Numbered from the whole stretch's first letter, positions 782 to 61,082 are shown. The stretch: 63,833 bases of DNA, filler included, from Perkinsus chesapeaki ATCC PRA-425 (GCA_013115145.1; 7 parts of 7 records of this genome joined end to end with filler, not necessarily neighbours in it), one strand, 5' to 3'. A program made the numbers and translations. Notes: generated by a model from the letters alone, not told the origin.

Positions 782-1918
782 TCATACCAGTGATTCCTTA
801 TAGTTGGGCTTGTGAGCGTTGTGCAGTACTGCCCACTTACCGTGACGGAATACTACCATAGCCAGGGAGTTTGGACTGCCTTTCTTCGGTACAAAGGTGA
901 AAGCCTCTCCGTCATTATTACCAATAATATAAACACTCTGCACGATGTCATAACTTATCATCGTGGTCCGCTTTCGCATCCCCTGTACCACTTTTTCTCC
1001 ACCAGTGACCTCAGTAAACTTGAGTGCTTTCCCTCTGGGTAACCCCTTTCGCACCCCTTGGATCTCTGCCGTGTAAGCGGGACGTGTACTGACATAAGTC
1101 TGCATTCCATCAGTGCTCGCGTCTTGCGGAATAAGTCTACGGAATGTATACGTCTTGTCAGGATGACGATCTCGGCCAGTGAAGAAGAGGTTGAATTTGT
1201 CGGGTATCTCCCCGATCGGGTTCTGATAAGGGACGGATGTCATAAAGTCTAGTTCTGGTTGGTCTATATCACACGGCATGATTAACAGATGAGTGCGTTC
1301 GATTTGTTTGTTATCACCCTCGTTGTCCATTATTCTCATATAGCGGTTTGTGCCTTGAAAGGACCTTCTGATCTTCCTCCAAGCGAGCTTCTTCATATCA
1401 TTCCAGACGTCGGGTTTCTGCCCCTTCTTGACCCCACATCCCTTGAACTGTAATGAAGACTTCTGTTTCATCTTATCAACCCTCACAATAGGCGGGTAAG
1501 TGAGAACTTCACAGCTACGTGTTCCGGAACTTATACCTCCGTCTTTACCTGCGGTTGAATTGTAGATAAAGATATCCGTGAAATCGCCGTCCCGTTTCTT
1601 GGCCTCCCCAGCCATAGAGCCTCTCCCAAACCACGAAGGTGGCAGAAGACATCTGACGGTCCCTGGTTGTGTTCAGGAATATCCTCCGGTACACGAGCAC
1701 TGTCAGCCATGTCTCCACCCGGGGTGATATAGCAATCATCGGAGAGCTCGAGGCTACCGACAAAGCGTTTTTCGAATTCATCAAGTGACATTACGTTAGG
1801 CGAGGACTGTTGCTTGTGACTGGTGACTCACCAGTGGTGAGTAGACGATGACCATCCACACCGATAGCGAAGAGGATAAGTCTAATTTACGGCAACCAGC
1901 AGTAGAAGGAGACATCAT
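782..1918 (-). pseudogene. Frameshifted paralog of the secreted protein at 6790-7935 (only a 277-aa C-terminal ORF remains)
   Basis: Relative to copy 2: a 1-nt deletion near 1885, a 14-nt insertion at 1820-1841 and a 5-nt gain near 1610. The frame from the shared MMSPS start stops at 1796; ORFs 1531-1791 and 782-1615 carry the homologous sequence in different frames. Confidence 0.8.
1820..1841. other. +14-nt inverted-triplication scar, T=CTGGTGAG (putative transposon excision footprint)
   Basis: ctggtga-ctcaccag-tggtgag; the paralog has a single ctggtgag at 7850-7857. Confidence 0.8.
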
Positions 1919-2506
1919 AAACTTGGAAGCGCAAATGATAGTCCGTGACGGCCGGACTCTGCGAGAGAACAGACTCTCAAGAGGACTTTGCGCGACTACC
2001 GAATCTAGCCACCGCCACCACTTAACTGGACGCGTCAACCTATCTGAGCATGCCGATGAGTTCTCTAGTAGGCCCCAATACAGTATTATTGCCTCATTTT
2101 GCCAGTTGTAGAGGAGACAGAATGCCTAGCACTCTTTTCAGAAAGTGGCGAGTTCTGGTAGCCTACCTTCGTTCTAATATCAACTTTCTTCGCAAATGTT
2201 AAGGCGGGAAGTATACTATGCAAAGGTTGAGCTTTCAGATGAGAGTAGCTTGGAATAATTTGATGCTAGACCAGGGTATGCGAGAACTATATGCAAGTGA
2301 CGCGGGTAGACATTTCTTAGCTCTGCCGCTGAAAAGATGAACTTGTAACAGCTGTTTTGTGTCTTTTATAATTTATAACGGAAGAAATGTCCCAAAGGGA
2401 TTTTTCAAGTATCGTAATGGCTCTTAAAAGCAGGAATCCGCGAGTCCAGTATCAATGCCTCACCCTCAGCGAACGATTTACGCTGAGCGAGGTCGATCTA
2501 TGACGG

Positions 2507-2528
2507 CTCCAGGCCCTGGAGTCCAGGG
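2507..2528. other. +14-nt scar, T=CTCCAGGG
   Basis: ctccagg-ccctggag-tccaggg, a perfect match to the T1-7/rc(T)/T2-8 pattern. Confidence 0.75.
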
Positions 2529-2537
2529 CACGCATGC

Positions 2538-5216
2538 GTGCACATTTGTCGGCCCCGTTGCCTCAGTACTACTTGCCCTGTGCATACTTGGGTATGTATG
2601 GCTTTGTGTTTGTTCGTCTTAACCTTTCTTGGCAGCGAATCCCAGGTAGCTAGCGATGACCTCTGTGGACGCTTAAGCCGCTCTGGTGGGCGTACAGTTG
2701 TGGAAGAGTACGCAGTGGTGGACTTTCTCTGGGGGAGAGCTGACGAATTGAGCGATTGCCTCAACAGCCTCACTATGAGCAAGTTCAGCGCTCTGTTCAC
2801 TCTCCACAACTTGAAATATGGCGTAGCGGAATCGTATGCCTTCACCGACATGGCTGATGGTCTGAACCGCTCCATCGAGAACAACACGTGCGGTTTTAAG
2901 CTTCACGACCTCGACGTCGACCTCAAGGGTTTTATTGATGCTCAGATAAAAGCGTTCTCCGATATACTGCATCCTCTGACAATTGATGAGCAGTTAAATG
3001 TCCTCAAAGAAGATATGAAGGCAGCTCCTTTTCACTTTGGCCTGCTGCGTGAGTTCAATCGTCTCAATGATGCTCATACGATATATCTCGCACCCTTTGA
3101 TCCATTCTACTATGTGTTACCGATACGCTTCAACTCTCGTATGGATGGCAACAACCAGGTTATTACACTCGAACTTGTCGACCATGCTTCATACTATGAG
3201 CCGGTGTATAATTCCACTATCCTCCATAAAGATGGTGATATCGTGACCGAGATTGATGGTAAACCCGTGCTCCAGTGGATGCAAGACATGGTCTCCAACG
3301 ATTATGCTGGAACGTTGCAGGGTATGTTGCAGAGGATCAACCTTCGCTTTTTCGTAAACCGATATGTGAACCGTCCAGCGCTGCTCACTCCCCCACCAAC
3401 TGGACCTCTCGAGATCACCTTCAGCGACGGATCCACTGAGACCATCCATTGGCTAGGCGTTCTGACCGACTACAGCAAGATAGCTGGAAGAGATGTCGTG
3501 AATACGTCAGCTCTCAGTGAACTGTCGAACTATAATCCGGCTTTCGATGAAGCACTCAAGTTCGAGGAGAAATTCTATCCGGAGAGGCTTGAAACTCTCT
3601 GGAATACCATGAGAGCATCCATGCCACTAATGCGCAGGGAAGCTGCCGAGTTCATTAAAGCTATACATGATTCAAGTCGTCACGATGATACAAGAGAAGA
3701 TCCTCTAGGATATCTGAAAGCTCAGATGGCTCAGCCATCTGCAGCCGCAGCCATCATGGCTGCTGCTGATGCTGCTGCAGATCGGTGGGTCCAAGGTGTT
3801 GGCTACAGTTACTCTACTATCGGTGACGCAGTCGTCGTGTCCGTCCCCAGTTTCAAGCCAGTTGAGGCAATAGATAGTGAGGAAACTTTCGCTTCAGCAC
3901 TCTTCCTTGGGTTTCCCCAAGTTCAGGATTATGCACGTCAGCACGGTGTAACTCGGCTGCTCTTGGATGTCTCATCCAACGGCGGAGGTTTTGGTTGGTC
4001 GGTTTATGCCTTCTTGTGGTATTTTGTCGGCTCCGAGGAAGAAACATGCTCCCCTACGGTCCGGCGCATGACACAGACCTGGCAAACATGGGTTTCTTCT
4101 TTCGGCGTGAACTACAATCAGACGATCGATGAGTTCTTCTGTGAGAACCCTCTACTCGGTGGGTACAAGGGCTTCATTAAAGAAAGGTTTGAGATGCTGT
4201 ATGACTTGTTACGGTATGGTGAGCAGCACTTGGGCGTGCAATTCGATGAGGCAGGTGAGCTCTCGAGGTTGCATGACATCGAAGATAGAATACTCTCCAA
4301 GAGGCCGGTGACTAGAAGAGCAGCTGCTTTCAAGCAGTTTTTGAAAGAGAGACTTTTCCTGAACAGATCGACTGCGATCGGCCAACAGCTTGCCCCACAG
4401 TACGGTTGGTTTCTCTTCGATAACACAGGTATAATCAACCGAACTACTGGTGAACAATTCGTCCCTCCTCTCTCACAATACCAAAATGTTGACCTGCGCC
4501 ATTGGGGTACACCTTCCAATTACTCGACGCCAGGTATGGATGCTGGATGTGCATTTGTAATGGAGATGATGCCGAACATTGTCCCTTCGAGCTACGATAG
4601 GGAGTATTGGTCTGAGGTTTCTTTCGTGACGGATGGTAATTGTGGATCAGCATGTTCTATATTCACCCAAGTTCTCCAACTATCTGGCGCGGCCACTGCC
4701 TTCACATTTGGTTCCCTCGCTGATCAACCTATGGACGTCGCCTCTTTCGGGGGAGGCAACGTTCTCGCTTATGACGATGTTTCACCTTTACTCAACATGG
4801 CGGGTCATCTGGGTCACTGGGCTACCTTTGGAAGATCTGAGTGGTCTCAGATTACCAGAGAGTCGTGGGTGAACAAGCCTATGCCTTTCCCCACTTCGGC
4901 TACAGCATCATACACTTGGAACATTCTGCTGGCCAGTCAGCTAGGGCCAGACTCAATGCCCCGCCAGTTCTACAAGATTCCTGGTCACAAGCATTTGAAT
5001 ATGTGGGCTCGCAATTTGTCGGAGCGGAGCAGCATCCATGAGGCTATAGTCGAGTTCAACAGCTGGGATAGTTTAAAAGCAAACCCCCAGTTTAGGGAAT
5101 TTGGTGACTGCCCAGCCTATCACCTTACCAAGGAGCATGCGAGCTTCTCTGCTCGCGGGTCCTTTGTGCAGGTCGGCGTTATGGTGATCATCTCTGTCCT
5201 CTGGTGGGTGCACTAG
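2538..5216 (+). CDS. Intronless secreted or surface-anchored S41-family (tail-specific protease-like) serine peptidase; likely start at 2598
   Basis: 892-aa ORF with a signal-like MALCLFVLTFLG, a PDZ-like segment (GDIVTEIDGKP), the S41 motifs LLDVSSNGGG and VTDGNCGSACS, and a hydrophobic C-terminus (VGVMVIISVLWWVH). Confidence 0.8.
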   Translation: MHICRPRCLSTTCPVHTWVCMALCLFVLTFLGSESQVASDDLCGRLSRSGGRTVVEEYAVVDFLWGRADELSDCLNSLTMSKFSALFTLHNLKYGVAESYAFTDMADGLNRSIENNTCGFKLHDLDVDLKGFIDAQIKAFSDILHPLTIDEQLNVLKEDMKAAPFHFGLLREFNRLNDAHTIYLAPFDPFYYVLPIRFNSRMDGNNQVITLELVDHASYYEPVYNSTILHKDGDIVTEIDGKPVLQWMQDMVSNDYAGTLQGMLQRINLRFFVNRYVNRPALLTPPPTGPLEITFSDGSTETIHWLGVLTDYSKIAGRDVVNTSALSELSNYNPAFDEALKFEEKFYPERLETLWNTMRASMPLMRREAAEFIKAIHDSSRHDDTREDPLGYLKAQMAQPSAAAAIMAAADAAADRWVQGVGYSYSTIGDAVVVSVPSFKPVEAIDSEETFASALFLGFPQVQDYARQHGVTRLLLDVSSNGGGFGWSVYAFLWYFVGSEEETCSPTVRRMTQTWQTWVSSFGVNYNQTIDEFFCENPLLGGYKGFIKERFEMLYDLLRYGEQHLGVQFDEAGELSRLHDIEDRILSKRPVTRRAAAFKQFLKERLFLNRSTAIGQQLAPQYGWFLFDNTGIINRTTGEQFVPPLSQYQNVDLRHWGTPSNYSTPGMDAGCAFVMEMMPNIVPSSYDREYWSEVSFVTDGNCGSACSIFTQVLQLSGAATAFTFGSLADQPMDVASFGGGNVLAYDDVSPLLNMAGHLGHWATFGRSEWSQITRESWVNKPMPFPTSATASYTWNILLASQLGPDSMPRQFYKIPGHKHLNMWARNLSERSSIHEAIVEFNSWDSLKANPQFREFGDCPAYHLTKEHASFSARGSFVQVGVMVIISVLWWVH

Positions 5217-6577: not shown

Positions 6578-6751
6578 TACAAGTGATAAATGCTTTAATA
6601 CCTCAGTACAAGTGATAAATGCTTTAATACCTCAGTACAAGTGATAAATGCTTTAATACCTCAGTACAAGTGATAAATGCTTTAATACCTCAATACAAGT
6701 GATAAATGCTTTAATACCTCAGTACAAGTGATAAATGATTAACATCCTGAT
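6578..6751. repeat. 29-bp tandem repeat, 5 near-identical units plus 1 degenerate
   Basis: tacaagtgataaatgctttaatacctcag repeated. Confidence 0.95.
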
Positions 6752-6789
6752 CCAAGTGAGAACTGGTCATCACCTAACGTGATTCACCT

Positions 6790-7935
6790 TCATACAAGTG
6801 ATTCATTATATTTGGGCTTGTAAGCGTTCTGCAGCACTGCCCACTTGCCGTGGCGGAATACCACCATGGCTCGAAAGTTCTGCTTCTTGTGTAGAAAGGT
6901 AAAAGCTTCTCCTTCATTATCACCAATAGTATAAACAGTGTGCACGATTCCATTATCTACCGTCGTATGTTTCCTTTTAATTCTCTGTTCCACTTTTTCC
7001 CCACCAATTTCCTCAGTGAACTTGAGTGCTTTCCTTCTGGGTACCCCATTTCGCAACCCTTCTTGGATCACTGCCGTATAAGCCGGGCGTGTACTGACAT
7101 AAGTCTGCATCCGTGTCTCATCTCTCATCTCTGACGTAGTCTCATCCGTGCCTACGTCTTGCGGAATAAGTCTACGGAAGGTATACGTCTGATCGTGGTG
7201 CCCATCTCGTCCAGTGAAGAAGAGGTTGAATTTGTCGGGTATCCCACCTATCGGGTTCTCATAAGCGACGGATGTCATAAAGTCTATTTTTGGTTGGTCT
7301 ATATCACACGGCATGATTAATAGATGGGTGCGTTCGATTTGTTTGCCATCGCCCTCGTTGTCTATCATTCTCATATTGCGGTATGTGTCTTTCAAGGCTT
7401 TTCTGATCTTCCTCCAAGCGAGCTTCTTCATATCATTCCAGACGTCGCGTTTCTGTGCCTTCTTGACCCCACATCCCTTGAACAGCAATGAAGACTCCTG
7501 TTTCATCTTATCAACGCTCACAATAGGCGGGTTAGTGAGAACTTCACAGCTACGTGTTTCGGAACTTATACCTCCGTGTTTATCTGCAGTTGAATTGTAC
7601 ATGAACATATCCGTGAAATCGCCGTCCCGTTTCTTGGCCACACATAGAGCCTCTCCCAAACCACGAAAGTGACAGAAGACATCTGACGGTCCCTGGTTGT
7701 GTTCAGGGATATCCTCCGGTACACGAGCACTGTCAACCATGTCTCCACCCGGGGTGATATAGCAATCATCGGAGAGCTCGAGGCTACCGACAAAGCGTTT
7801 TTCGAATTCATCAAGTGATATTACGTTAGGCGAGGACTGTTGCTTGTGACTGGTGAGTAGACGACGACCTTCCACACCGACGGTGAGGAGGATAAGGCTG
7901 ATCTTGCGGTAACCAGCAGTAGAAGGAGACATCAT
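6790..7935 (-). CDS. Intronless lineage-specific secreted protein, 381 aa, function unknown
   Basis: Open ORF with an N-terminal hydrophobic signal (ISLILLTVGVEG) followed by RRLL, and a paralog at 782-1918. Confidence 0.75.
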   Translation of the reverse strand: MMSPSTAGYRKISLILLTVGVEGRRLLTSHKQQSSPNVISLDEFEKRFVGSLELSDDCYITPGGDMVDSARVPEDIPEHNQGPSDVFCHFRGLGEALCVAKKRDGDFTDMFMYNSTADKHGGISSETRSCEVLTNPPIVSVDKMKQESSLLFKGCGVKKAQKRDVWNDMKKLAWRKIRKALKDTYRNMRMIDNEGDGKQIERTHLLIMPCDIDQPKIDFMTSVAYENPIGGIPDKFNLFFTGRDGHHDQTYTFRRLIPQDVGTDETTSEMRDETRMQTYVSTRPAYTAVIQEGLRNGVPRRKALKFTEEIGGEKVEQRIKRKHTTVDNGIVHTVYTIGDNEGEAFTFLHKKQNFRAMVVFRHGKWAVLQNAYKPKYNESLV

Positions 7936-24463: not shown

Positions 24464-24503
24464 CTCGATACTATCGAGTCGATAGTATGATACTATTAGT
24501 ATC
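24464..24503. other. Two overlapping perfect +14-nt scars (T=CTCGATAG at 24464-24485; T=ATAGTATC at 24482-24503)
   Basis: ctcgata-ctatcgag-tcgatag and atagtat-gatactat-tagtatc. Confidence 0.75.
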
Positions 24504-42690: not shown

Positions 42691-44065
42691 TACGGAACGC
42701 ATCATAACTCTAACAACATCTATGATGAGTTCATCCGTTGATTTTCCCACAAGTTGAATATTTTAAGTCTTATCATTTCCCCTCATTCTCATTATTAATT
42801 TTTTCGGTGTGTGTGAGTTTGAAGTCCAACGCCAAAGAAGGCTTAGTTAGACTATCCATACTATGTGCAACTTCCGAACGGCAGTTTAATACCTATACTG
42901 TTATTTCCACTGTACGGTTCACTCAAGGGAATTTAACTAGTCAAAAGAGATCCTACTTCTCCTAGCAGAATTCCCTTACGCATCCAAGGGCCTGTGTACA
43001 ACTACAAAAACACAGCGGCTCCAAAGGTACAGTTTTCCGGTATACTCAATTATTTCAACTCCGTTCCACCAATTCCACCCGAAATGACTGTGGAATTAGC
43101 GGTACGCATTTCGTAAAGAATTATTCTGTTATGAACGATTTCGGCAATCAAGGATCACATTTCCGTGATGCCAGATGAATGTAATGGTTTTTGAAACGGA
43201 ATGAGAGCTGCACATGGATGACAGAACGTGTGACTAATGTCAGATAATCGGTCCAAATTGCATAGCAAAAATGTTTCAGGAAAATTCCGCATGCTCGTGT
43301 ATTTTACCCGTGATGAAAGATCACGGATCCTGAGGACTTACCTTAATACAGAGAGATTGGCAAACTCGATCAAGTCTCTGAGGTATCGGCGGCGGGCTCT
43401 CGCTGTCTTCACCAAAGCAACTTCTACCGCTACGACTCAACTCACCAAATATGTGGTTAACTACCTAATTCGGAAAACGTAAGGATTGCAACTATTTCCA
43501 GAGTTCTATTGCTGTCTTTGCGCAGTTTGTCAGTTTGTCTGGGCCCGAGTTCGGTATCTCAGGATTTTCCGTCGAGGAATAAATTTCTGGAGTAATCAAT
43601 CCGAAGCTTATTTTCAATTATGACCCTCGCTTAGTTGTACACTGAGTTCGCATTTGTTGTTAGGTGAGTAGTTCCTACCGAAGGTGATGCGCCCAGAGTC
43701 CGAATCATATAATAAACATTCAAAGTTTGAATGGTGTTGGATAAGGCTTATTTGGGAGCAAACGGCACCGTGCCCACTACCTATGAGCATGAGTTTGCAC
43801 CCTGCCCCTTGCCTGGGCACTATGCCCTAATGGCCTAGCATCCAGTGGGAGTCAACCGACCTATGTTCTCAACCTTGTCCAGTTCCGAGTTGGAACTTGG
43901 AATTGCGCATCAAACTACGATATCGCAAGGTTTCAAGTTACAGCAAGTGCGCAAGAGTTCTCGAGTTTTGCAATCCGTAGTTCGGATTCCGAACGTCAGA
44001 AGTCATAATTAAACTACCTCTACAGTTCATCTTTGAACGCGTCTTTCTCGACAGAACGCTCTCTA

Positions 44066-46263
44066 ATGCCAACGTCTGATCGCATCAGAAAGAGAAAGGA
44101 GAAGGAGTTGTCAGCTCTCAAGGATCAGAATAGGAACATCAGAGAAATGTTCAAGGCTATGAAGTCTAGAGAACAATGTAGTTGGGAAAATAGTGTACAA
44201 TACCAAATTCATATCATGGATGCGATAATTATAGCACCACATCATGTTGTAATAACATTGTCATTGAGCCAGTTCGAAGCTCGAACTTCGAGGCCATTGA
44301 TCCGGCCAGAAGTAATCTAACGGTTTCAGGCTCGTCCTCATCGTCTGTAAATCCCTCTTCTCGTCCAAGCTCATCTTCTTCGTCCAGCTCCGCAGCAAAT
44401 GAGTCTGCGGAGTTGCCCGGTGGCAGTAGCGGTGATAACATTGCTACCGCTAACGATGTCAATCCTACCGGAGAACCACCCATCACCAGCGATGTCGAAG
44501 AGAATGAGCGTGGGTCACGGCATACTCGATTGAAATTTACAGCTATCTGTTAGATTCAGAAATAACTACCAATCGCAAGAGAAAGCGCGATGAAGAGGCT
44601 GCCGAGGCGAAACTATTGAAGTGGCAAACACTCTATCCAAGCCTGAAATGTTTCGAAGTCAAGCAACATGATAGTGACCCCACTGCGTCCGTAGCATACT
44701 GCAAGTCATGCAGAGCCCAAGCCCAATTGAAACTGAGCATCTTGAAGAAACACTCTGAGTCCAAATTATATCTTGCTCGAGCATCTAATCAAGCTGGCAG
44801 TATGATCGAAAAAATGAAGCGGCCGGTGATCGAGAGAGTGTGCGTTATTATACATGCTGTTTTGGTTGCAATGGTGGTGGGAGCGGCACAGCGTGCAACC
44901 CATCACTTGTTGGCAAGCTTCCAACATTACGGGGCCTGTGTCAGCTCATCCTGGATGAGCTACGGATATTCATGGGAATTCGTGGTAGCTGCTGCCCGGA
45001 TCGTCACAAAAAAACTGGTTAACGGCGTGAATGCTAGTGCAGCCCATCACATTAACTATGATTTATCCACTGATATAGCAACCAAAAAAAGGCTGGCCGT
45101 GATATTTACCTACTTCGATAGCACTGTCGGCCGCGTGAAACAGAATCTTATCGGCTTTATGGGCACTATTGGTAATGGGTTGGAAACAAAAAAGAAAATC
45201 ATGGATCTCTACAACACAGCTGGCATAAACCCCGATAAATGTGTTGGTGCGTGCACTGATGGTGGTGGTCCCGAGAAGAAAGCGTTCGAGTTACTGGTTC
45301 AAGACTCCTTCTTCCATGCTGACGCACAATGGAGTCACTGCTTGGTTCACAGGATTGCTCTGGCGGTAGAAGACGCGTGGTCGGGCTCTGAGTTCTGCAA
45401 GCGCGTAGAGAGCCTCTTCATCAGCATCTACAGTGAGTTCAGTAGATCGTCTCCGCGTGTCGGCACATTAAAAGAACTTCAAGAACAATTGGATGACGGT
45501 GTTGCAGATATGAACAGGTTTACTAAGTACTATCGGGTTCGCTGGCTGGGCAAGATCTCTTGCCTATCCCCTATCCTCAAACATAGTGCAGCGCTGCTGT
45601 TGTATTTTGAAAAACAAGAAAATCAACATCGAGCCCCACTCCACATTGGTTTGCTCCGGGATGAAACGGGAGATGGTGAGGTGGCTAAGCTATGGCTGGT
45701 TCTGACGAAAATTTGAGAGCACGTAGTTCGGCTTCAAAGCCAATCTTTGAATCTCTCCGATGCTTGCCGCCTGGTCGATGATCTTGAGGCTTCCATCTCC
45801 TTTGTTATCAGATCCGGTAGCCGTTACGTCTGCTAAAGGGATGCAGGTCGGTGCCGACAGTTCAGTTGCTGTACAAGAATATGTTATCAAATGCCGCAAT
45901 TTGAGATCTAGAGGAGACTCGCTAGAAGTAAAGGATCTTGCGGAGTTGGCGGCTCAGTCCGGGAATGAGGATTTGATCTATCGGGTAATATCTGGCCTGA
46001 TAAGGGCTCCTACGAGTTGTGGGGCCGAGAGGAGCTTTTCTGTATTGACCCGTGAGTTGTCGAAAAGTCAAAACCGCCTGGACAATGACCATTTACAGAG
46101 TGATACCATACTCTGTGCTAATCGCGATCTTTTACTGGAACTAATCGCACCTGATCGCACTGGTTTGGTGGAGGTCGCTCATGAATGGATGAGTATGAAG
46201 GATAGAAGAGAGAAGATATGCAAGTCCTCTGAAGATTTGAAGCAAGCAAGTCCTATCGATTGA
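44066..46263 (+). mobile_element. Decayed hAT-superfamily transposase (TTF-type zinc finger, ZNF862-like); TIRs not located
   Basis: KWQTLYPSL..AYCKSC..LKKHSES zinc finger; catalytic-type motifs DLSTD, CTDGGG, HCLVHRIALA (CxxH), VRWL; hATC dimerisation motif PTSCGAERSFS. An in-frame TGA at 45714-45716 is followed by continued homologous sequence (RLQSQSLNLSDA), then a frame change. Confidence 0.9.
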
Positions 46264-47399
46264 AGACTGTATACTATACAGTCTATGAGTCATGTGACAT
46301 GACTTATGCAGCATAAGCTATGCTGCATGGCTTGCCATGTCTACACATGACATTCGTTGCAGGCAAGTAACATGCCGCATGTTGCTCATGATATTACTCA
46401 GTAATAATTATTGCATGAGATATTATTTCATTAAGTTGATCATTAGCTGTAGGAGTGTGGTAGTTAGCTGAAGCTATGCCATAGAACCATTTGTGATAAC
46501 ACTATTAAAGTATTTATCACGCTCATTGCAGCGGTAGTCAACTCATCCCGATAATGTGTTGAGTTTATCACAACGAAACATTAGTGGAGACCGTGCCTTC
46601 TCAAGTGGATACTAATGCAGAACCCTGCCCTCGGATGCTTCTACAATGCCCTTGCGAAAAAAGGATGCTTAGCCAACACGTTTGAATTTCAAACCCACTT
46701 GTTCAATAATCTCTAAAGCCAAGTAAGCGCTCACCTCCTTCCTGTTGCACGTCTCCTTATTGGCAATAGTTCCCTTAACGAATCTAAGCTGTAGACGGGT
46801 TTCAGGATCAACGGTATGCAGTAAAACAGCAAGAGCCGCACATGACCTATCATCACCATAACATCAAAAATGATATCATCTCCTTACCAGCCCTGAGCGG
46901 TCAGAAGCCCCAATGGATCGTTACGCTTATTATCATTCGCATTCTTATTTATCTGAATAAACCTACACTGTATGATATAATGTTCGGCTTGTCTCGGCGG
47001 GGGCGGGTAATCTTAAAGATGTATAATTATGCAGCACGGGAATAACACGGAATGCATTACACCTGTATGTTTGATTACTTCGCATATCTCAGTCACCGAG
47101 GGTGGATTATTCCAGGAAAACAGATCCCAAGTTTAAATGTTGAGAACTAAGCCAGTTCAACAGAGTCTTTCACTTATTGCCATTCGGAAATACCGCCTTG
47201 AGTGGTTCAATTGATATTATTTAAGTGCTTGTGCACTACATTATGCATACTTAAACAGGCCACTAATGGCGGGGGTCATATCCTCTAGAACAGAGTTCAA
47301 CCTATACATTCACATTACGTAGGCTATAGAGTATAAATTAATATGCTAATTTCGAGCACCTCAAAAAAGGGGATCGTCAATGAACTTACAAATCCAACA

Positions 47400-49910
47400 T
47401 CAGCAGCTAACCCTTTCCGATCACTTCCAGACTTAAGGGAGCCTTTAGCAGCCAATACTTCTTCCCGACGGTGCCTTTCACTAACGATGGGGACCTAAAC
47501 GACCTTGCTGTGATAAACTTCTACTATAGAGACTCTATATGGATATATTTCACCATGACAATCGAACCTCAAACATCTCACAAGGAAGGGACATGAATGC
47601 ATCTATCCCCACGGAAATGAGTCTCGACTACCAACGCTTGAACAAAATACTTTTGTTAAGAAATGTGACCAACTACATTCCTCATTCCTCTTTAACGCCA
47701 TGGAAGGTAGACGTTAAAGTGATGGAACACCTTCTAACATTCAATTATAGCATGCTTACTAAACATCGTAGCATCGCAAGGTCACCAGCAACAACGGCTA
47801 AATGCATCAAGGTTATATCATCATCCTCAGTACTCCAATCACATGGGCAATCTCCGCTCTGATCGTGAATCTCGGGGTAGTTCGATACGAACTGGGTCCC
47901 TGAAAGCCTATTGTGTATCGAACGGTATGCACTTGGAGCTTCATTCTAGTGCGGGAATTCCCAAAAATGCTTCCAGTGGGAAATTGCTGCACTTTTCGTT
48001 GGTATAAATTTACAATAATATGTTATTGGAGAGTAACTTACTAAGGGGGACTTACCTGGGAAATCGGCGAGCTTAATTGTCTCGGTAGGATCGGCACCAA
48101 AGGAAAGTAAACATTGCACCTATAAAACGATGCATATCGGGCGCCATAAAGGAACATTCTCGAGATTCTTCGAGGTTCACAAGCAGTTGGGTGCCCCCCT
48201 GTCGCTAGGAACCAGTGCTACGGCAGTGTATGTAGTCGATTCGGTGATAAAAGAAATTTTCGGAAACTCTTGAGCGAGTGGTTTATACTCAGGCATCGGA
48301 AAGGTAGCTTCATGTACGATATAATATGAAGATTCTAGAACTGAGCGGAGGAAGCCCCATAGTATCCCAACACTGGAGACACCATAGTTTTCCTAGTACA
48401 TCTTAACAGTATAACAACGCTGAAAAATCCTTAATAGGGATTCCCTATCCCCTTAATTGATTATATTCCAGCCAAAGTACTCCAATTTTAATGTAGAGAT
48501 AACATGTAGGAATTAAGAAATAAAAATCAGGATAATATGAGAAATAATTCACTCCACTGCTAGCTTCGTACCTTCTCGGCTATTCGACAATTTTTAAACT
48601 TCTTACCATTTCTATATTCTGCCTTGCCACTGCGATGGCGATCGGCGTCCATTGGCTGCCATCACTTCTACGATCTCGAGTATTAACAAATTTACGATTG
48701 GTTATACGGCAAATTTCCTGATGAAAAAATTAAATATCATTCCTAGAATAATAACCCCACTTGCACAAGAGCGACATTCCCTCCCCATACGGCGCAATGC
48801 AACAGTGTCCAGTGGTGCTTCAAGGTCATCACCGCAGACATATCGCCGCCGCTGGAGTACTTCAACTACAGGCAGGGTAAATGACCTAATAGTGAAGGAT
48901 TGTCTTACCAGCATCGTAACAGTATTATAGTGTCCTCCGAGGGCTGCTAAGTGAATTGGAAGAAGACCTTCATCAGTCATGTCAAGGTCACTCGCACCTG
49001 CTACCGGACATTATTACACATGCGTACTGGAGAACACTAGGACATCTTTCAGGAATATCATCGTCACATGCATGAGCTGGCAAGGTGGGACAACATTTAA
49101 AAGTATCGAAGAATTGAACTAGAAGAGTAACTTTATAATTGTGTAAATTGGGAAAAAGTCTGGTTGCAATTTGCACCCTCCAACAGCAGCAAATAGTCTC
49201 ACAGCCACTGAGAAATTCAGTTATAAGTGACTTGAAAGCCTTCCAAGGAAGGCAAGCTGTACAAGCACACGTAGCGGCATATTTTATATTTCCATAATAT
49301 CTCCTCCTCCGCACTAGTAAAATATTCCCTATCAAACTTCCTATTCCCATACTGGTCACACATTCCCTTTAGTTTGCATGGTTCCCTCTAGGTCACCTTC
49401 ATCCGCATCATTATCAGGATCAATTTTATCGACTCGGACTCTCCCACTCGATATATCGTTAAATGTTACAGAATGTATACAAACAGCACCGGTTCTTGCG
49501 GAGGCCTGAGAATAGGCAGTCCTGTGGATCGAACCCGGAACCTTTCGGACCTTAGCCCCCGCTTTTAATAGAAGCTGAGCAGCTCTAACTTTCCCCTTCA
49601 AACAACAAATGTGAAGTGGTGTCCAGTCATACATCAATTTTCCTCGAGTCGATCTATCATTGACCAATCCACGGTAATATCTAATAGGTTAAGTGCAGAG
49701 TGAACGAGCGGCTCAAGTCGCACTGCGCATGCGTGCCAAATTGTGCACTCGCGCGCAAGTGCTGGTCGCGAACTTATGTTGAATAATGCTTATAATTGAT
49801 ACATTCACGAAGAGACCCAAGCCATCCATCTCGGGTTGGTACTCGGGAAGTTCTCCAACACTTTCGTACAGCTCCAGAAACACTCTTGAAATCGACCAAA
49901 ACCGCTCCAC
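47400..49910 (-). CDS. Multi-exon ankyrin-repeat protein; ends approximate
   Basis: YDWTPLHICCLKGKVRAAQLLLKAGAKV; GLLPIHLAALGGHYNTVTMLV; ITLMHLAVVAGDLAMLRC. Confidence 0.75.
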
Positions 49911-50379
49911 ACCGTTCTGGCGCGTAAAATTAGCGCCAACTTTGCATTCGGTCGGTTTCGAGAACTTCTCCTAGCGGCGACCTGACGCTGGTCCGCTGTT
50001 GGGAGGCTTAGGGAGATCGCCTTGTAGTCCTTTGGTGGACGCTAGGATGGCCATGCACTATCGAACACTGGAAAAGCCGAGCCAATTCATCGCAGTCGTT
50101 GGAAACTTACTCTTTTGTATTGCCGGCTCTGGCTTAAGCCCCCGCATATTCAAAACTTTGGATTATGAAACGACTGGATTAAAGCGGAATGTTGACTGGG
50201 CAGCGGAAAGATGAATGATTGTTAGTGCAGCATCGCGTGCGAAGAGAACTTCCCAAAGAAGTGCAACTGCTTGGCCGGGCCAAGTTGGCCCAATGACACA
50301 AATGTGGAACACGACCGCCATGGCTGGACCACGACGACGTTTAGCAGATTGCTAAACACTTCGCGTTGAGGCTGTCTCA

Positions 50380-51800
50380 TTTAAGGGTATTACCCTCAAA
50401 GCTCGAGCCTCCTACCTCCTCGAAGCAAGTAGTTTCCTCGGCGAGGAATCCTCGGACCTCCCATTCGTCATTCCCTTACTTTAGAGCCTCGGCCATTACA
50501 TCAGCTCCATCATTCCCTAGCCTTTTATTGCACACCTCTGCCACTATATGTAACTAGGATGGATTTCACAAATCAACATCAGAGAATACACCTACCACTC
50601 CAAAGCCGTCGAATCTGGCGCTACTGTGAACGTCGGCTGACTTTGTCAGGAAGGTGATTAGGATTTCATCTTGGCCTTGAAAGGCGGCTGAATGAATGGC
50701 CGACCAGCCATCATCGGTGTACTGAGAATAACATTCTGGAGGTTGTGCTGAAATTTAGATAACACGACCTGCAGTTTCGAATAACGATATGTATTCCTCG
50801 GCGAACGGGACAATCGCGGTACTTTAATCGAGATATAGTAGTCTACCCGATTCGTAGTTCCGGCGTGGAAGAGTCAATACCCGTGTGGGCATGATAGACG
50901 AACTGGTATACTTGGAAGTTAAAGATGGAATAAAGGAATAAATTTTCAGTTGAGGTATAAAACGATGCATGAACAAGTCTCGCAAGCACGCAGCGTACTC
51001 TATAGTAAATTATGTGGTACTTTAAGGTGGAATATAAGAGTATAGTTAGGTCATAGTATACTTTAGGAGTATATTCTAATTCATACCCTTACATGTGCCA
51101 TTGCTGAAGTACGAGGCTGTTCCAATAGTGTTTCGACTATCCTTGCATTACCACGGAAGGCTGCATGTCTGAGGATACACCTAGATGACCTTCACAGGCA
51201 CTCGCATACCTTAGTGGAGTTCTACAGCTTCGAACGGCGTGAGGGGAATAACATTCATCTAGCACTAACGCATCGGGTGAGCTAATGGCGAGTTGGCGAT
51301 TGACGGCAGACTGAGGAACGGCTAAGAATGATCATGAAAGATGTCTTGGTGCATACGAGCTGATTTTTCTCGATGGCGGCATGAAGTGCTTCAAGCCTCG
51401 TCTCGTATAAGACCCCATCTATTGGAATGTGGATTTCTCCACAGATAGCAGTAGGGGAAGGAACACCTCTCAAATTGGAGTCAGATACAACCATCAAGGT
51501 TTCCATAGATGAGCAAGTGAAACTAACAAGGCCTCAGCGAAGACCCTGAGAACCAAAAGAACACTGATAGCAAATCTGAGCTTGAACGTGAGCTAGTGCG
51601 CTTAGGGCACTGCCCTGAGGCCCTAGTCCGTCTGCCGTGCAATGGTACCTTGACCACTTTAATTGTGGTCGTCGGACAGGCTCATAAGACAAATGAAGGT
51701 GCCTTGTTGGGTGATCGCTATGACAATAATGAATGGTATATTTAAGTTTCACTTTCCAATTGATATCTGTGCGCTCCCCTAGCAATAAAATGGGATGCCT
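50380..51800 (-). CDS. Exons with RNI-like LRR and ankyrin-like motifs (same gene as 47400-49910 or an adjacent gene)
   Basis: LGNDGADVMAEALK (RNI-type LRR) and LEALHAAIEKNQL (ankyrin-like); exon joins unresolved. Confidence 0.4.
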
Positions 51801-52366
51801 CATGCAACGAGCAAGGTATTACACTATTACATTATTACGCCATTGTATTACAAGGTCTTATACTAAACGGGTTCAGGCTCTCATGCCAGACAGTCCAACT
51901 TAGACTAGTGGGTTTTCGGGGAAAAACTTTTCTTGCCTACTATTGGTATTACAAGTGATATCTTTGAATTCTCACCATAGCAGAACCTGGTTCACGCGGA
52001 GTGGTGTTTGTGGAGAACGCCAAGTGTTACAGTCAGAAATCTTTTGGCGTTGGAACATTGTATGTAAGAGCCGCGATAGCACAGAGACCACCTTCGCCGT
52101 ATTGCGTTCTGAGTTACAACGCACAAAATGAAATTCGCCTGCGCACATTCATGCTACGCTACCATTGCTACCTATGAGATCGAGAAATAGCGCGACATAA
52201 CAGCCCAATCTACAAAGGCTCCATACAGAAAAAAAGGAAGCCCGAAGCCCACCTCAGAAAGGATGTCAATAATATCACGGTCATCACTAGCGTTGAACTA
52301 TTGCATTGGTGCGAGGCAATGGGAGTCCATTGAATGGACGTCTTAGACGCCACGTCTAAGAATCTA

Positions 52367-52388
52367 CAGATAGACTATCTGAGATAGT
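52367..52388. other. +14-nt scar, T=CAGATAGT
   Basis: cagatag-actatctg-agatagt, perfect. Confidence 0.75.
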
Positions 52389-52703
52389 CTTTGTGCGGAG
52401 GGCGCCTTTAGGCACCTCTATAGGGTATTGATGGAGTAAGACGTGCGCCAGCAAAATCCTTATCTCCGATCATCCTTCATCCCGAACTAGCGGATCAACC
52501 AAATAGTCAAGAGGGGCCACTAGGCCGATTCTGATAAGCGGATTGAGCTTGCGAATGTAGCGGCTGTGAAATCTCCAGAGATTAAGGGAGTACCGCACGC
52601 ANNNNNNNNNNNNNNNNNNNNNNNNNNNNNNNNNNNNNNNNNNNNTTAATTAATTAANNNNNNNNNNNNNNNNNNNNNNNNNNNNNNNNNNNNNNNNNNN
52701 NGT

Positions 52704-55540
52704 CGAGGGTTCATTAATGGAAGATGTGTTTACCGTAACGATGCTCTCAGCGACGACCCAGCGGTTCCTGACGACGCGGTCTTCCGAATTATTGAGCCAA
52801 TCGGCCCGGTCGATGATGTTCTCTGTCATGTTACACCTGCTTCAGGAATCGACGTTCCCCCTATGCCATCAGTCGAGGCCAGTGGATTGTTACTGCCTAA
52901 GCTGACGGAGCAGGAGGACCGGTATGTCGATCGACTACTGAGCTCTGTGGAAGATGAAGGGTGGGCGCCTTTGCCCCGGACTAACCAGGCATATCATAGT
53001 AGAGTGCGTAAGCTGCTGCCCTGCGAGTTTATAGATCTCCCCGGCATACAGACGCACGTCTGCGAAGTGCGAGTCCCCGATCGGATTGTTTCTAATGATC
53101 GTGGAGCCTCATATGCACGGTCCCTGTATCTACGTCTACCCGACGAGCTCAAGAAAGAGTATTCGAGGTTGGTCTCAGATTATCTAGCTTCTCGCTGGTG
53201 GGTCCCCGTTGCGCGTGGTGCTGTAGAGTCTAGACAGCATGGTCAGTCACGTGCGGCCGCCCAAGTTTTTCTCATCCCTCCAGGAGGGACTAGGCGTAAA
53301 GCTAGATTGGTGGTGGATTTTAGAGCGTTAAATCGCGGGCTTCCTCCCGCAGGAAACAACCAGCCCCCGATCTCATTTGTCATTGGTGCCCTGAGAGCTG
53401 AAGCTCGGGAATGCATCGCCCTGGCAGATGCTCGATCAGCGTTCTATAAATGTCGCTTGTCTAACACCACATTACTTCTGGAGACTGGTGATAACCTCGA
53501 GTTTATATTCCAGAGCATCAGGATGTGTTTTGGAGTGGTTTTCGGACCCTCAGGCTTGAGTGGCAATATGGGCCGCCTCGGTGATTCGTTGAGATCATGC
53601 GATTTGCCCATCGCCCTATTATGTCTGGTGCTATTGGTCATTTTTGTGGATGATCTATGCGTCTCTGGTCCTACCAGAGCCACGATTATCGTTTTCAAGC
53701 TGCTGCTGTTCGTGCTCGCGAGAGCTGGATTCGATGCACAGCTTAAGAAGGTATTTGTCCTGTGTGTTGATCGCTGCCGACGAGAGGTTCGTGGTTCCCT
53801 GTTGGAGGCCCGTCTAGATTTAGAGATCGCTGATGAAGGGACCCTCCTGGGTGTAAAGCTCCGTTTTAGTGGAGATCGACTCCTTCTAGACTGTGACCGC
53901 TCTAGACATATTCGTCAAGTGGTTGCATTTCTGGAGGACATCTCTCGCAAGGAGATCACTACCAAGCGAGTGTGTTTCAAGTGCTCTGGCTGTCTTGCTT
54001 TTGACCCAGCTCAGCAGCACGTGTGGGCTCGTATTTGTGCCGATGGGTTGCGTGCATTGGTTGGGAAGCTGTATGCCAAGTTTGAGTGGTCTTCAGCTAT
54101 TGATCTTGGTGCTCTCAATGGTGATGCCAGGTCTGCTCTTGATTGTATCCTGAACTGGATGAAGAAGCTCTGCTCCGAGACCTGCAATCACTCTTCCCCT
54201 GTTCGATTTGGCGATAGTCCTTGCCTAGAGTTAGAGGCGGTTTGCGATGCGTCAAATAGCGGAGGTGGTTATGTGATTCGCACCCCTGATGGCACGGTTA
54301 TTCTTTCTTGCGCAGTGAGATGGCGTAAGGGAGAGCGGCGCTCTCAGAGCGCCTATGGCACAGTAACAGGCGAGAGTTATGCATGTTGCTTCGCATGCTC
54401 CAAGACCTGAGTGATTTCCTACAATTTCGTGCGAAGAGCACATGTGGTTCTGCCCAGAGAGCATCTGTCACGGTTTTATGTGACAATAAATCTTGTGTCC
54501 TTTGGTCACAAAGTAGTGACAGTCCTGATATTGTCGAGGCTTCTCGAGCTGTTGAACGAAGAGCCATTGCGCGACTCCTCAGCGGACTTCACGGCGAGTT
54601 GGTTGCTCTCAAGACAGTGTGTTCTTTGCGTATTTCTCACTTGGCTGGTCATCAGAACAAGTTAGCGGACTCGCTTTCAAGAGCATATGATAGAGTGACT
54701 CCATGCGGCAAGAGTCTGGCTGATTGTCTGAGTGGCATCGGCGATATAAGTGAGGAGGTTCCGAGAGACCCTACAAGAAGTGGCATAGGTTGGACAAAGC
54801 CTGACTCGAGGGATCCTTTGGATCCAGATTGGGAGCCTGACGCTGCTGATGTAGTGGTCACTGACGAAGCTTTATGTGCTCTAGATTTGGCTCAAGCTAC
54901 TCCTGACAAACCTCTTGAATACCCGTTCAGTCTGGCTGCTCACGGTTTATCAAGAGGGGCGTCCTGTTTTGATACGGTTTGCTTACTTCGATGTGACAGA
55001 GATAAGGTCTTTCGCGTATGCAATCCGGCAGCTGTTGGCGCTGAGCCTATCATAGAGAGGTTCGCGCGTCATTGCTTCGACATCTCACAGCTAGCTCGTC
55101 TCGTTTGGTCGGCCAGAAACGTTTTCGCCCTTCTGGGCTGCAATAGGATGAGCAGAGAGTTTGAGATGTTGGACTTTGACCGAGAGCAATGCCACCAGCT
55201 TGCGGCTCGATGTTTGCAGCAGTGTGAAGTACGGCTCAGCCGTGGATGACGGGAAGAGCCCTGTTCTACGCCCTTGTGGTCCTGTCTTCCGACGATCGGT
55301 TCGCGGAATGCAAGATGTGTTTTATCTGGCGTACCGTACAGGATCGGCGGCAGGGTCAGTTTCCTTCTGTCCAGTTGTCCCGAAGGATACTCCCACTACC
55401 TTTTTGAGAGCTCTGATCATCCGGAGTGCCCACCGAGAAACCCGGCATGGAAGCATTCCTGCTACCACAGCTCTGGTCACCGACTTCCATCTGCCTTCTA
55501 TTAATCAGGATGCTAGGAAACTGTCTAGAAGTTGTCTTGT
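52704..55540 (+). mobile_element. LTR retrotransposon pol (RT, RNase H, start of integrase), BEL/Pao-like, frameshifted; both ends in gaps
   Basis: RLVVDFRALN, AFYKCRL, RMCFGVVFGP, FVDD; Pao-type TKR..AFDP connection; RNase H CDAS, WHSNRREL, CDNKS, HLAGHQNKLADSLSR; integrase zinc finger IIRSAHRETRHG..SC. Frame changes near 54340 and 55235. Confidence 0.9.
54331..54352. other. +14-nt scar, T=GAGAGCGC, causing the RNase H frameshift
   Basis: gagagcg-gcgctctc-agagcgc; collapsing it restores WRKGERLWHSNRRE, colinear with WRQKHPRWHSNRRE of the second element. Confidence 0.8.
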
Positions 55541-57556: not shown

Positions 57557-57751
57557 NNNNNNNNNNNNNNNNNNNNNNNNNNNNNNNNNNNNNNNNNNNN
57601 TTAATTAATTAANNNNNNNNNNNNNNNNNNNNNNNNNNNNNNNNNNNNNNNNNNNNTCTATGCTTATCTATAGACTACGTCCATTAGACTAAAACTGTTA
57701 CGCTTCTGGATCTATGAGCTTCTTCGCGTTCAGTATATCTAGGGTAGACTC

Positions 57752-57804
57752 TAGTCGGCCCGACTGAGTCGGGTTACCCGACTCGGGTATTACCCGGCGG
57801 GTAA
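57752..57804. other. Chain of three overlapping +14-nt scars (perfect T=GTCGGGTA at 57768-57789; one-mismatch scars at 57752-57773 and 57783-57804)
   Basis: gtcgggt-tacccgac-tcgggta; tagtcgg-cccgactg-agtcggg; tcgggta-ttacccgg-cgggtaa. Confidence 0.75.
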
Positions 57805-58049
57805 TAGTAAGCCGTACGGTAGTCAATTCCCCTACTGTACCCGGAAGAGTAAGGGAATTGACTACGATACCGGGGTGTCTTTTGCCGCTGTTTATGTTTC
57901 ACACACCTAATTTTCTTTCGTACACAAATTGTGTAACACAATATGATCATGTGTCGTACTATCACGTAATGTGATAGTATGCGTGCCGCCGCGATCGATT
58001 TTCCTGGTCTCATCTTTGCCATTCCTCACTAATTCCTTTTGAATCACCT

Positions 58050-58615
58050 CAGTTTGACTCACCTCGGTATATTAACATGCCTTTAAGGCATTGCCTTATA
58101 AACGAACCGTACGTTCGGTATGTTCCCTACATGTGTTCATGTCCGAGGTATGGACAGCTCGGCACATGCTATCATATACACATGGTAGAAAATCGTATGA
58201 ATAATGATAGCGTGGTACGCAATGCTGCCGAGTCAGTTGGCAGTGCCGAGCCTGAAGCTGACTCGGTCCTCGGCAGAGGCTCCTCGCAAGACATGGGATC
58301 TTGTGCCGGAGGAGCGGCAGTGCCTGTGCAGTGACGGGAGAGCGGTCCCAACCAAGCAGCGCCATTGATACTCTCATCGCGGATGGTAGTAAGCGCAAGA
58401 AAGGGAGGCCTGGCCGCAAGCCGCCTGCTCTAAAATGTTCTAAGACTGATGTTACTCCACTACTTCCTACAAAGTCCCTGCCTGAGGAGCTGCTGAACTT
58501 TTCAGCTCCAAGCGGCTGCAGTCAAGCCGCTGAACCATCGAACTGCGGAGATTCGTATGTGGATGAAAGTGACCTTCCTCCGAGTGTGGACGCAACTATA
58601 AGGAGGCGTCAGTGA
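58050..58615 (+). mobile_element. SWIM zinc-finger remnant, probably the C-terminus of a Mutator/MULE transposase
   Basis: MCSCPRYGQLGTCYHI (CxC..CxH) followed by basic KRKKGRPGRK; no DDE core seen. Confidence 0.55.
58077..58098. other. +14-nt scar, T=ATGCCTTA
   Basis: atgcctt-taaggcat-tgcctta, perfect. Confidence 0.75.
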
Positions 58616-61082
58616 TGGGTTTCATCGAATGTGGGTAGGTAAAGTCTGAATTAGCCGATGTATAACTGTTTTTTCTGTTCAAGTTACGGTTGCGAGAATG
58701 CGGTTAGGTAATGCCGCTGAATTAATGAGCTGAATTTTATCTTCTTTTTCAAACAATTTGATTACACTGTGCTTCACTGGGTGCACTGCTGACCGCATCA
58801 GCGGTTGACATCCGTTTCTTGAAAAAAGTGTACTGGTTTCGTAGTAAATTTGATTAGCTTCGCGTTCATACTAGCAGTTTTGTAGATNNNNNNNNNNNNN
58901 NNNNNNNNNNNNNNNNNNNNNNNNNNNNNNNNNNNNNNNNNNNNNNNNNNNNNNNNNNNNNNNNNNNNNNNNNNNNNNNNNNCATGGCAAAATCTTACCT
59001 CTTCCATTGAAACCGATTTTTTGGAGTTTTAAAAATCAGATTTCTCGCCAACCCAATCGAATATCATCATGGGCCGTATGCCGTTAGAAACTCACTCTCG
59101 AGGGCTTTCGAACGTCGCACGTGTCGTCGAAATATTCGCCCTCCTGAGAAAGTTATTCAAAAAGGCCATTTTTTGGGACACCCTGTATATGTTGCATCGG
59201 AGATTGCCCACGCCAGCTACTGGCTGTGTTAGGATAAGTGTACTATCGAGCCTAAGCCCAATATCTGCGTATGGGGCCTCCTTGCGAAGGGAAGGGCCGC
59301 GATAGCCCATCGCTAATGAGTGAACCTGCTTTCTCAGGGCAAAAGTAGGTTCTACAGGGCCTCATTAAAGCTAGTGCCCTAGGCACCAATATCTTGGTAA
59401 AAGAAGGATTTACCACAGGGAGGTCGTCAGCTCCACTCATTGAGTTGAACTTCTCGAGGATCACAATGGCACTCTATGTAATCATTGAAATGCAATGTAA
59501 TCATACACCTAATGTAATCGTAGTATAGCGATATCTCTTGGTGATGAGCACTAAGTGCTCACTTTTTGCGTTAACACTCCGGATTGGCTTGTCACATGCA
59601 TCAATCAGATGAAACCCTCTTAGAGGATAGCTCCCGTATGCAATGCAGGGCAGCCACGGTATTCAATGGAAACTCTTCGTGGGCGTTCTTTTTTGGCGTG
59701 GAAATATGAACTCGCTCAGAGAGTCATTCATACATCCTAGCCACGACAGCTAGTAGCTCTTGAACGTTGCTAATACCTTTTCAGTGCACGCATTCACAAG
59801 CAAGTTCTGTCTCACAAGCAATAAACAGAGTGGGTACTTTGTTCCACAACAGATTACAGTCTCCACTCCGAGCAACTAGCGCATAGGTACCTATTAAGAA
59901 CTTTTAAAACCCGGCCACGAAGGTCATGAACCAGAAAAGGACCGAGGCCCCTTTCGTGTAAAGACTATATCAACGGTAATGGAAACGTGATCAAACGTAA
60001 ACGTATACATAAACGTACACTAACGTGATTTTCATACCAATCACATCCGAATAGCAAAAACGGTACCTCACCATAAGGAATCAGTATGCTACGGAAAAAA
60101 CTCATATATTTGTTAACTGGATAATATGTCAACAACGAGCATATTCCGTAGGCATTAGCATTAGGACTTCGGTATAGTGCTTACTGCGTGTCTAGGCCCA
60201 GCCTAGTAGGCTGTTCTATGAGCCCAGACGGCTAAATTGTGGCTGGTCGGCATTGGGAACCCTCAAGTCGTCTGGCAGACCGTAGCACTTAGTCACGAAA
60301 AGCCAAAACTGCAGATTCGAGTTTCATCAACCTGCGACTCCATCATCCTGCTTTTTCCTCATCGCGAGAGGACGTCCCGGAAGATTTCATTGCGCATTTT
60401 GTCCAGTACCTGAGGCATACCAGAGCTTCTAAGAACTAGTGGTCATGAACTAATAACCCTTTAGTGTACTGCTTCTCACGAAAATCGGATGGTGTACAGA
60501 CTCGATCGCAATCCCTCCACGACTGCAATGGAGACAATCGGATGCTATCTTGTTGAGAACAAAGATTTATGTTCCAAGCCTCTTCAAGTGGAGGACTCTG
60601 AGTAAACCACTTGTGCGCCGGCCCGGACATGAGCCTGATCCACCTCGAGCTTGTAGAAAACTCAAATAGAAGCCAGATCAGAACGCCCATAAGAATTACA
60701 AAACACCGCCCNNNNNNNNNNNNNNNNNNNNNNNNNNNNNNNNNNNNNNNNNNNNNNNNNNNNNNNNNNNNNNNNNNNNNNNNNNNNNNNNNNNNNNNNN
60801 NNNNNNCCCCCGATTCGATGCCACCGACAGCCGGGTCGTTCCACATCTAGCTCCGATTTAGATGGTGTAACCTTGTAGGCTTTATCCGTGTAGAATGAAA
60901 ACTGCGGCATATTACTCGCAGAGTTCCTGCGCGGCACAGCCACGCGAGGGTTGAAGCACTCTGGAAAATGTGCGTGCAGCACGCAGGCCCCCGAAAAGTA
61001 TGTACTGTGCTTCAATGATTCCATTGGATCACTCCGTGTTCACATGGAAAGCTCATGGTGAAACAATCGCTCACGAATCGCG

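Follow-up and report, generated by a model that had tools for sequence, protein, structure and literature searches.

The stretch of DNA considered here (the window) comprises 63,833 nucleotides from Perkinsus chesapeaki ATCC PRA-425 (GCA_013115145.1), a member of a genus of shellfish parasites. It consists of seven contigs joined by spacers of the form N44-TTAATTAATTAA-N44 and contains 63,043 non-N bases. The window harbours a hAT transposon at 43733..46679 and, scattered along its length, stereotyped 22-bp motifs that are referred to below as scars. Each scar is built from an 8-mer, T, in the arrangement T1-7 + rc(T1-8) + T2-8 (rc, reverse complement), which makes it 14 nt longer than a single T (+14). 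The original prediction, made from the sequence alone, attributed the motifs to hAT excision followed by annealing of opened flank hairpins. This origin is supported by the present analysis: the 22-bp motifs are very probably hAT excision footprints, for which the flank hairpins would probably have been opened to give long 3' tails able to anneal over the target site duplication (TSD).

Compared with ten local dinucleotide shuffles, the whole window yields 13 perfect, 14 one-mismatch and 8 two-mismatch scar rows, with shuffle means of 0.0, 0.0 and 0.2, respectively. Two of the two-mismatch rows (43980 and 46310) are overlapping re-reads, leaving 6 two-mismatch sites and 33 distinct scars, approximately one per 1.9 kb; 20 of the 33 contain mismatches, and the sequence they add amounts to about 0.7% of the window bases. 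Looser scoring gives 43 candidates versus 2.4 in the shuffles. The eight perfect sites listed in the original prediction are all perfect 22-mers, but five others had been overlooked (25116, 25419, 33411, 50270 and 57921), and seven of its eight one-mismatch sites keep that score, while 52337 scores two mismatches because a single change in the middle block counts double.

The comparison of unit lengths with shuffled controls, suggested as a check in the original prediction and run here on the window, produces a sharp peak at k = 8, with 13 perfect motifs against a shuffle mean of 0.0. Counts are zero at k = 6, 7, 9, 10, 11 and 12, and at chance level at k = 4 (21, shuffle 18.2) and k = 5 (2, shuffle 1.3). 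With two mismatches allowed, k = 7 gives 11 motifs versus 3.3, which may be partial reads of k = 8 scars. Paired odd-centred palindromes, 7 bp apart, are also in clear excess (16 versus 0.15 in shuffles), and even-centred palindromes in the window show no excess of pairing over the shuffles. Furthermore, the scars have decayed by mutation and tend to lie close together: of the 32 gaps between them, 7 are at most 100 bp long, compared with 1.6 expected (p = 0.0012), and 6 of the 33 scars lie within the hAT element (p = 0.004).

Perfect scars are found at 1820..1841, 2507..2528, 25116..25137, 25419..25440, 33411..33432, 50270..50291, 54331..54352, 57921..57942 and 58077..58098, and two overlapping perfect scars (24464 and 24482) occupy 24464..24503. 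Those with one mismatch lie at 25224..25245, 26242..26263, 26364..26385, 28443..28464, 32746..32767, 48427..48448, 50434..50455 and 60192..60213, and two-mismatch scars at 6769..6790, 51596..51617 and 59539..59560. A pair at 52337..52388 combines the two-mismatch scar 52337 with the perfect scar 52367. Within the hAT element there is a one-mismatch scar at 43973..43994, two two-mismatch scars (44244 and 44272) at 44244..44293, and a cluster at the 3' end (46267..46413) in which one-mismatch scars at 46303, 46362 and 46392 are accompanied by older three-mismatch candidates at 46267 and 46289. Finally, three overlapping scars (57752, 57768 and 57783) form a chain at 57752..57804, which is the result of repeated hits on one 11-bp site. 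The apparent new scars obtained at 24468 and 57755 when scars are collapsed are the known overlapping ones.

The region 57657-58200, just before a G+C-richer stretch, is a dense cluster of scars and palindromes and has the appearance of an insertion hot spot. It includes an odd-centred inverted repeat at 57814..57870, with 28-nt arms that are 82% complementary, which is possibly a one-sided footprint of long tails. Folding of four scar regions restated the palindromes only and is not used as evidence.

The hAT element itself (43733..46679, plus strand) is 2,947 bp long and is delimited by a terminal inverted repeat (TIR) matching at 11 of 12 positions, GTGTTGG(A/C)TAAG; the left end bears an additional G. 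Of the 22 exact 8-bp direct-repeat pairs listed, this one has the best TIR score. Alignments of other genomic copies begin at 43734 and stop at 46679, placing the ends of the window element at 43733/43734 and 46679. The window copy starts GGTGTTGG, while the other copies allow TGTGTTGG or CAGTGTGTTGG; the terminal consensus of hAT elements is (T/C)A(A/G)NG. Moreover, a related locus joins 43452 to 46730, with 249 letters versus 3,277 in the window. A strict search for an 8-bp TSD plus TIR returned nothing in the window, the element emerging at k = 7, or at k = 8 with a 1-nt offset.

The presence of a hAT transposase gene, claimed in the original prediction, is confirmed at 44066..46263 (plus strand), where the D, D, CxxH, RW and E motifs can be recognized by comparison with relatives. 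D271, D336, C363, H366, RW and E605 are conserved across 41 transposase sequences. The gene is broken: there is a stop at the end of 44508-45716, and near 45810 the frame changes and a segment is missing. The window copy is therefore not an intact, active transposase. The PF05699 domain (Dimer_Tnp_hAT) is detected in 16 of the 20 distant relatives scanned, out of 150 listed, and in the P. olseni relative P0003, which passes the cut-off, while the window copy falls below it. The comparison of P0003 with PDB sequences gave no meaningful match, and a search with the hAT alignment found no related loci in metagenome_contigs or viral_contigs.

The flanks of this element are themselves a scar split in two. 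The structure at 43718..46694 (plus strand) reads T1-7 + rcT (43718-43732), the element, and rcT + T2-8 (46680-46694), with T = ATTCAAAC and no mismatch in the flanks. The hAT element with 8-bp direct repeats that a hairpin model would lead one to expect is thus present, the repeat being GTTTGAAT. It is the only such pair of half-scars 30 bp to 15 kb apart in the window, and none occurs in ten shuffles. The left end of a second genomic copy, inspected by eye on loose contig ends, has a half-scar (6/7) plus 1 nt upstream, and this copy is followed by a further perfect 22-bp scar. In the window copy, the terminal base of the other copies is apparently missing at both ends, and the extra G corresponds to the next base of the palindrome.

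The bases at the palindrome centres point to hAT chemistry. When they are left free in the scoring, 53 of 58 centres complement the outer base of the TSD, 2 equal it and 3 are other bases. Ds footprints carry a P-nucleotide palindrome centred on the complement of the element-adjacent base (described in part of PMC5873905), and hAT excision generates hairpins on the flanks and blunt ends or a 1-nt 5' overhang on the element (parts of PMC8151067 and PMC6900584). Complementary centres imply 3' tails from both hairpins, on paper their sole source; the 5'-overhang form, in which the centre would equal the TSD base, is ruled out by its count of 2 in 58. A resemblance to the nTnnnnAn target preference, which is that of Hermes (parts of PMC2803484 and PMC6900584), had also been suspected, and of the 66 bases at positions 2 and 7 of the T 8-mers, 32 are indeed the T or the A that it calls for, compared with a background of 27% (p = 1.4e-4). 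Among symmetric P-type footprints, only +14 is clearly in excess (13 versus 0 in shuffles). The classical short footprints from +8 to +13 show no excess over shuffles in the window, +8 being represented by 2 versus 2.5.

That the scars are insertions relative to an empty site, as originally proposed, is borne out at three of them (1820, 6769 and 43973), for which paralogous empty sites are exactly 14 nt shorter. Two of these belong to a gene duplicated at 487-1960 and 6421-8019 (minus strand; the pair compared spans 487-1941 and 6421-7958), each copy carrying one scar where the other has a single 8-mer: scar 1820 is matched by an empty site at 7850..7857, and scar 6769 by the paralogous sequence near 770. 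The alignment of the two copies contains other indels as well, between 1 and 57 nt long, and indels thus have sources besides the scars. The third case is a copy of the hAT element with an internal deletion, in which the 14 nt are missing at 43974 (runs X1, X2 and X4).

Scars in coding DNA coincide with frame changes, in agreement with the frameshifting role assigned to them in the original prediction. Translated comparisons (tblastn in the case of 1820) reveal frame shifts at scar 1820 and across scar 54331, the latter lying between two frames of a reverse-transcriptase-like gene that are both matched by a single frame of the copy at 62274-63833. Only 2 of the 33 scars are located within long open frames, which cover 24% of the bases (p = 0.007), although the depletion weakens to p = 0.15 when three further scars in broken coding regions are added. 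The scars are passive mutations and not functional elements. Furthermore, all 14 scars in 32602-52601 recur without change in the contigs of two samples, which come from two studies.

The genes concerned deserve a brief description. The duplicated gene has no assigned function and no Pfam match, and a 29-bp tandem repeat comes after each copy. In the first copy the frame changes twice, once at scar 1820 and once at a 5-nt indel near 1670. The sequences at 52702-55249 and 62274-63833 are divergent copies, 26-41% identical, labelled reverse transcriptase/RNase H-like from motifs by eye, and 52702-55249 has no Pfam match at E<=0.01.

The proposed pathway would begin with the insertion of a hAT element at T and the duplication of T, as is established for the family. 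On excision, the transposase would nick 1 nt into each flank and seal the ends as hairpins, with the complement of the element-adjacent base at the tip; this step is established for hAT elements, and the centre-base test fits it. Host nucleases would then open both hairpins off-centre, on the 3' side, leaving tails that read rcT and T. Such an opening is suggested by the identity of the centre bases together with spaced scars that call for tails of 10-14 nt. The tails would pair at their longest match, normally in the TSD register, with subsequent filling of the gaps, so that many nick positions would yield the same +14 product. In a toy model of this step, 3' tails summing to at least 8 plus the minimum overlap give +14 in 53-100% of cases, and tails of at least 6 nt on both sides give it in 97-100%. 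The fixed length of the scars, which had suggested microhomology-dominated repair in the original prediction, thus does not call for an opening exactly 8 nt from the hairpin tip. More rarely, the tails would pair in another register within triplet repeats, or an element would be caught between them.

The first of these rare outcomes may be represented by two spaced scars with exact outer arms, both within triplet repeats, whose centres are 10 and 23 bp apart. At 309..333, there are 3 extra nt in a TGG repeat; the paralogous site near 6200 is shorter, but the alignment is poor beyond it. At 3725..3762 (plus strand), the arrangement T1-7 + rcT + 8 nt + rcT + T2-8 adds 30 nt in frame to an open reading frame (ORF) annotated as 'tail specific protease domain'. 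It falls in a 14-aa insertion that is missing from all eight aligned relatives; of its 42 nt, 30 would come from the footprint and the others from an adjacent repeat. This ORF (2487-5216) belongs to an expanded Perkinsus family that takes the name from its source, with 14 relatives found.

The second rare outcome would be the filled scar at 43718-46694, and here the views that can be taken rest on one complete case. Reinsertion of a hAT element into the centre of an older scar is the less likely route: four events overlap an earlier scar, none of them in the central register, so a central hit should be rare. The filled scar probably arose by a route coupled to excision instead. In one such route, the excised element would be captured by end joining between the opened tails, which would explain the extra G and the apparent loss of the terminal bases; in another, the element would be inverted by copying from the sister, which would explain the exact 8-nt flanks. 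An in-place flip by a hybrid joint is ruled out on paper, given that it would produce a plain TSD and not a filled scar.

This last copying route has a counterpart for the scars as a whole, in which the origin would be the same hAT excision but the join would be made by templated synthesis, with an opened tail priming on the TSD copy of the sister or homologue and then switching back. If the sister were intact, the product would be T1-7 + rc(T-element-T) + T2-8, the form seen in the filled scar with its 8-nt flanks, and the half-scar before the left end of the second copy is also predicted. On the other hand, templated synthesis predicts intact element ends, while the window copy is apparently short of one base at each end and bears the extra G, and no in-register nested 36-bp scar is found in the window; joining in this way is thus rather improbable. 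An origin from Mutator-like elements (MULEs) has to be weighed as well, since MULEs also form hairpins on their flanks and can make 8-bp TSDs, as described for Muta1, with TSDs of 8 or 9 bp (parts of PMC5499845 and PMC5225508). The same sources attribute to Muta1 TSDs of both lengths, no target preference and about 90% precise excision, whereas the scars have counts of zero at k = 9 and k = 10 and an enrichment of T2/A7, the TIR is 12 bp and not long, and the element in the filled scar is a hAT, with no MULE domain in any of the 20 relatives scanned. A MULE origin is accordingly very unlikely.

Explanations that dispense with a transposon fare still worse. Any direct-inverted-direct triplication can be expressed as a replication template switch, and snap-back synthesis by DNA polymerase theta would be another generic source, P. 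marinus being scored positive for the POLA/POLQ group (Table S1 of PMC6635534, seen in part). Neither accounts for the restriction to k = 8, the symmetric offsets of 1 nt and their complementary centres, the preference for T2/A7 or the presence of a hAT element between two half-scars; template switching is largely refuted by the single-length spectrum, and such an origin is highly improbable. An artefact of library preparation or assembly (transposase-based libraries, hairpin chimeras) would be compatible with evidence drawn from contigs, both samples being possible sources of the window DNA. However, the same 14 scars occur in two samples from two studies whose contigs differ at other positions, the scars are under-represented in open frames, and an artefact is disfavoured because the scars decay (20 of 33 mismatched) and are missing from paralogs site by site, so that this explanation is hardly credible.

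Several observations weigh against excision and annealing as the source of the scars, or limit its reach. Assayed hAT elements leave short, mixed footprints (parts of PMC5873905, PMC3499496 and PMC1978519). T2 and A7 occur together in only 7 of the 33 T 8-mers, so the resemblance to nTnnnnAn is partial, and the window contains no ordinary hAT insertion with a plain TSD from which a target logo could be built for comparison. The right end of the internally deleted copy, read by eye on loose ends, has no in-register half-scar. Neither a polymorphic scar nor an allelic trio was found, the two samples being near-identical and sharing all 14 scars (12 of 26 indel rows listed). The +7 class reaches 21 versus 8.8 in shuffles, but 7-bp-spaced repeats in general reach 58 versus 18. 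Precise excisions and deletion footprints cannot be detected by a motif scan, and +14 is therefore dominant only among the detectable classes. Annealing at the longest match is an assumption of the toy model, and the scar evidence comes only from assembled contigs, those of this window and of the two samples. Finally, about 17 palindromes with arms of at least 7 nt lack a clean partner (23 less 6 halves of spaced scars), where about 4 are expected by chance. Those with arms of 7-9 nt include odd-centred ones at 9325, 24548, 25467, 26019, 28691, 41893, 44952, 47532, 52332, 53282, 57166, 57337 and 60978, and they may be decayed scars, one-sided footprints or chance.

Loss of classical non-homologous end joining (C-NHEJ) could be a reason for microhomology-dominated joining, but it is not supported as the cause, as judged from the relative P. 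marinus rather than from P. chesapeaki. The COG-based Table S1 of PMC6635534 gives P. marinus a score of 1/1/1 for Ku70, Ku80 and Lig4, and such a loss is therefore not the likely cause; the same table contains at least one apparent miss, Toxoplasma Ku80, which is scored as 0. P. marinus is also present in two Ku tree files of PMC11936186, and the literature search returned nothing on Perkinsus end joining. A broader proposal, tentative and somewhat doubtful as a whole, is that Perkinsus opens transposase hairpins far from the tip despite Ku and Lig4, collapsing hAT excision onto one +14 product, and that the same event, arrested, is preserved in the filled scar at 43718-46694, with the element rejoined between the tails or copied in inverted from the sister and its '8-bp TSD' made of P-nucleotides rather than by insertion. 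If this were true, a single genome would suffice to count and date each past excision, and some apparent TSDs would form a false class.

The remainder of the window contains other features. A high-copy short repeat occupies 42807-43028, with dozens of contigs beginning at 42807 and a summed depth far above single copy; one contig joins it in reverse to a piece of the hAT left end, with no TIR or TSD established. Further multi-copy pieces, identified by depth and loose ends, lie at 39052-39149, 49277-49340 and 51945-52601. Repeated CTCGGGTT-like words and a CAGTGTG start at 24510-25000 and 25559-25580 resemble the subterminal motifs of another element, for which no partner end was found. Tandem genes for POT/PTR2 peptide transporters are located at 22667-23139, 26684-28201, 29316-30863 and 31530-31577, a search with their alignment finding no related loci in metagenome_contigs, and a 451-aa ORF on the minus strand (39633-40988) shows a weak C2H2 zinc-finger match at its C terminus that does not reach the cut-off.

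Excision marks are normally unrecognisable without the ancestral allele, whereas the +14 scar identifies itself. One assembly thus yields the number of past excisions, their target 8-mers, hot spots and relative ages, and makes purifying selection measurable for a frameshift of defined type (+14). In a duplicated gene and in a retroelement, scars coincide with frame changes, and a protease-like ORF has gained in-frame residues from one variant. They also report on hairpin opening, with long 3' tails and microhomology, in an early-branching alveolate with a relative scored as keeping the C-NHEJ genes.

The mechanism is the known model of hairpins and microhomology, and the chemistry is not new; what is unusual is the uniformity and density of the +14 scars. 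Among the papers listed by the literature search, none deals with scars of this kind in Perkinsus or with full-TSD inversion as a fixed outcome across a genome, although classic footprint papers may list the +14 product among many. Inverted duplications of flank DNA are left at excision sites by Ascot-1 in Ascobolus and Tam3 in Antirrhinum. Coding joints of V(D)J recombination also gain palindromic bases by hairpin opening, and open-and-shut and hybrid joints rejoin ends to the excised piece, but the tails in V(D)J joining are short and, in the absence of a TSD, have no built-in 8-bp register for annealing. The hairpin parallel between V(D)J recombination and hAT excision has been drawn in PMC6900584 (seen in part). 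Muta1 of Aedes aegypti resembles the present case in its flank hairpins, a possible 8-bp TSD and repair guided by the TSD, and differs in its 8- or 9-bp TSDs, lack of target preference and mostly precise excision (PMC5499845 and PMC5225508, in part). TcBuster, Tol2 and Hermes share the flank hairpins, the blunt ends or 1-nt 5' overhang and the 8-bp TSD, but the portions of PMC3499496, PMC8151067, PMC6900584 and PMC2803484 considered describe small variable indels and no fixed full-TSD inversion. A close likeness also exists with Ac/Ds in S. cerevisiae, Arabidopsis and Candida albicans, with palindromic P-nucleotides, microhomology joining after hairpin opening and an 8-bp TSD (PMC5873905 and PMC1978519, in part). 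According to the same portions of these two sources, Ac/Ds footprints are mixed, with at most 3 P-nucleotides in Candida, arms of up to 20 nt in yeast and 28 footprint types among 128 clones. In the window, by comparison, a single symmetric class is in clear excess, in which the whole TSD is inverted (+14), and it is fixed at a density of about one per 1.9 kb.

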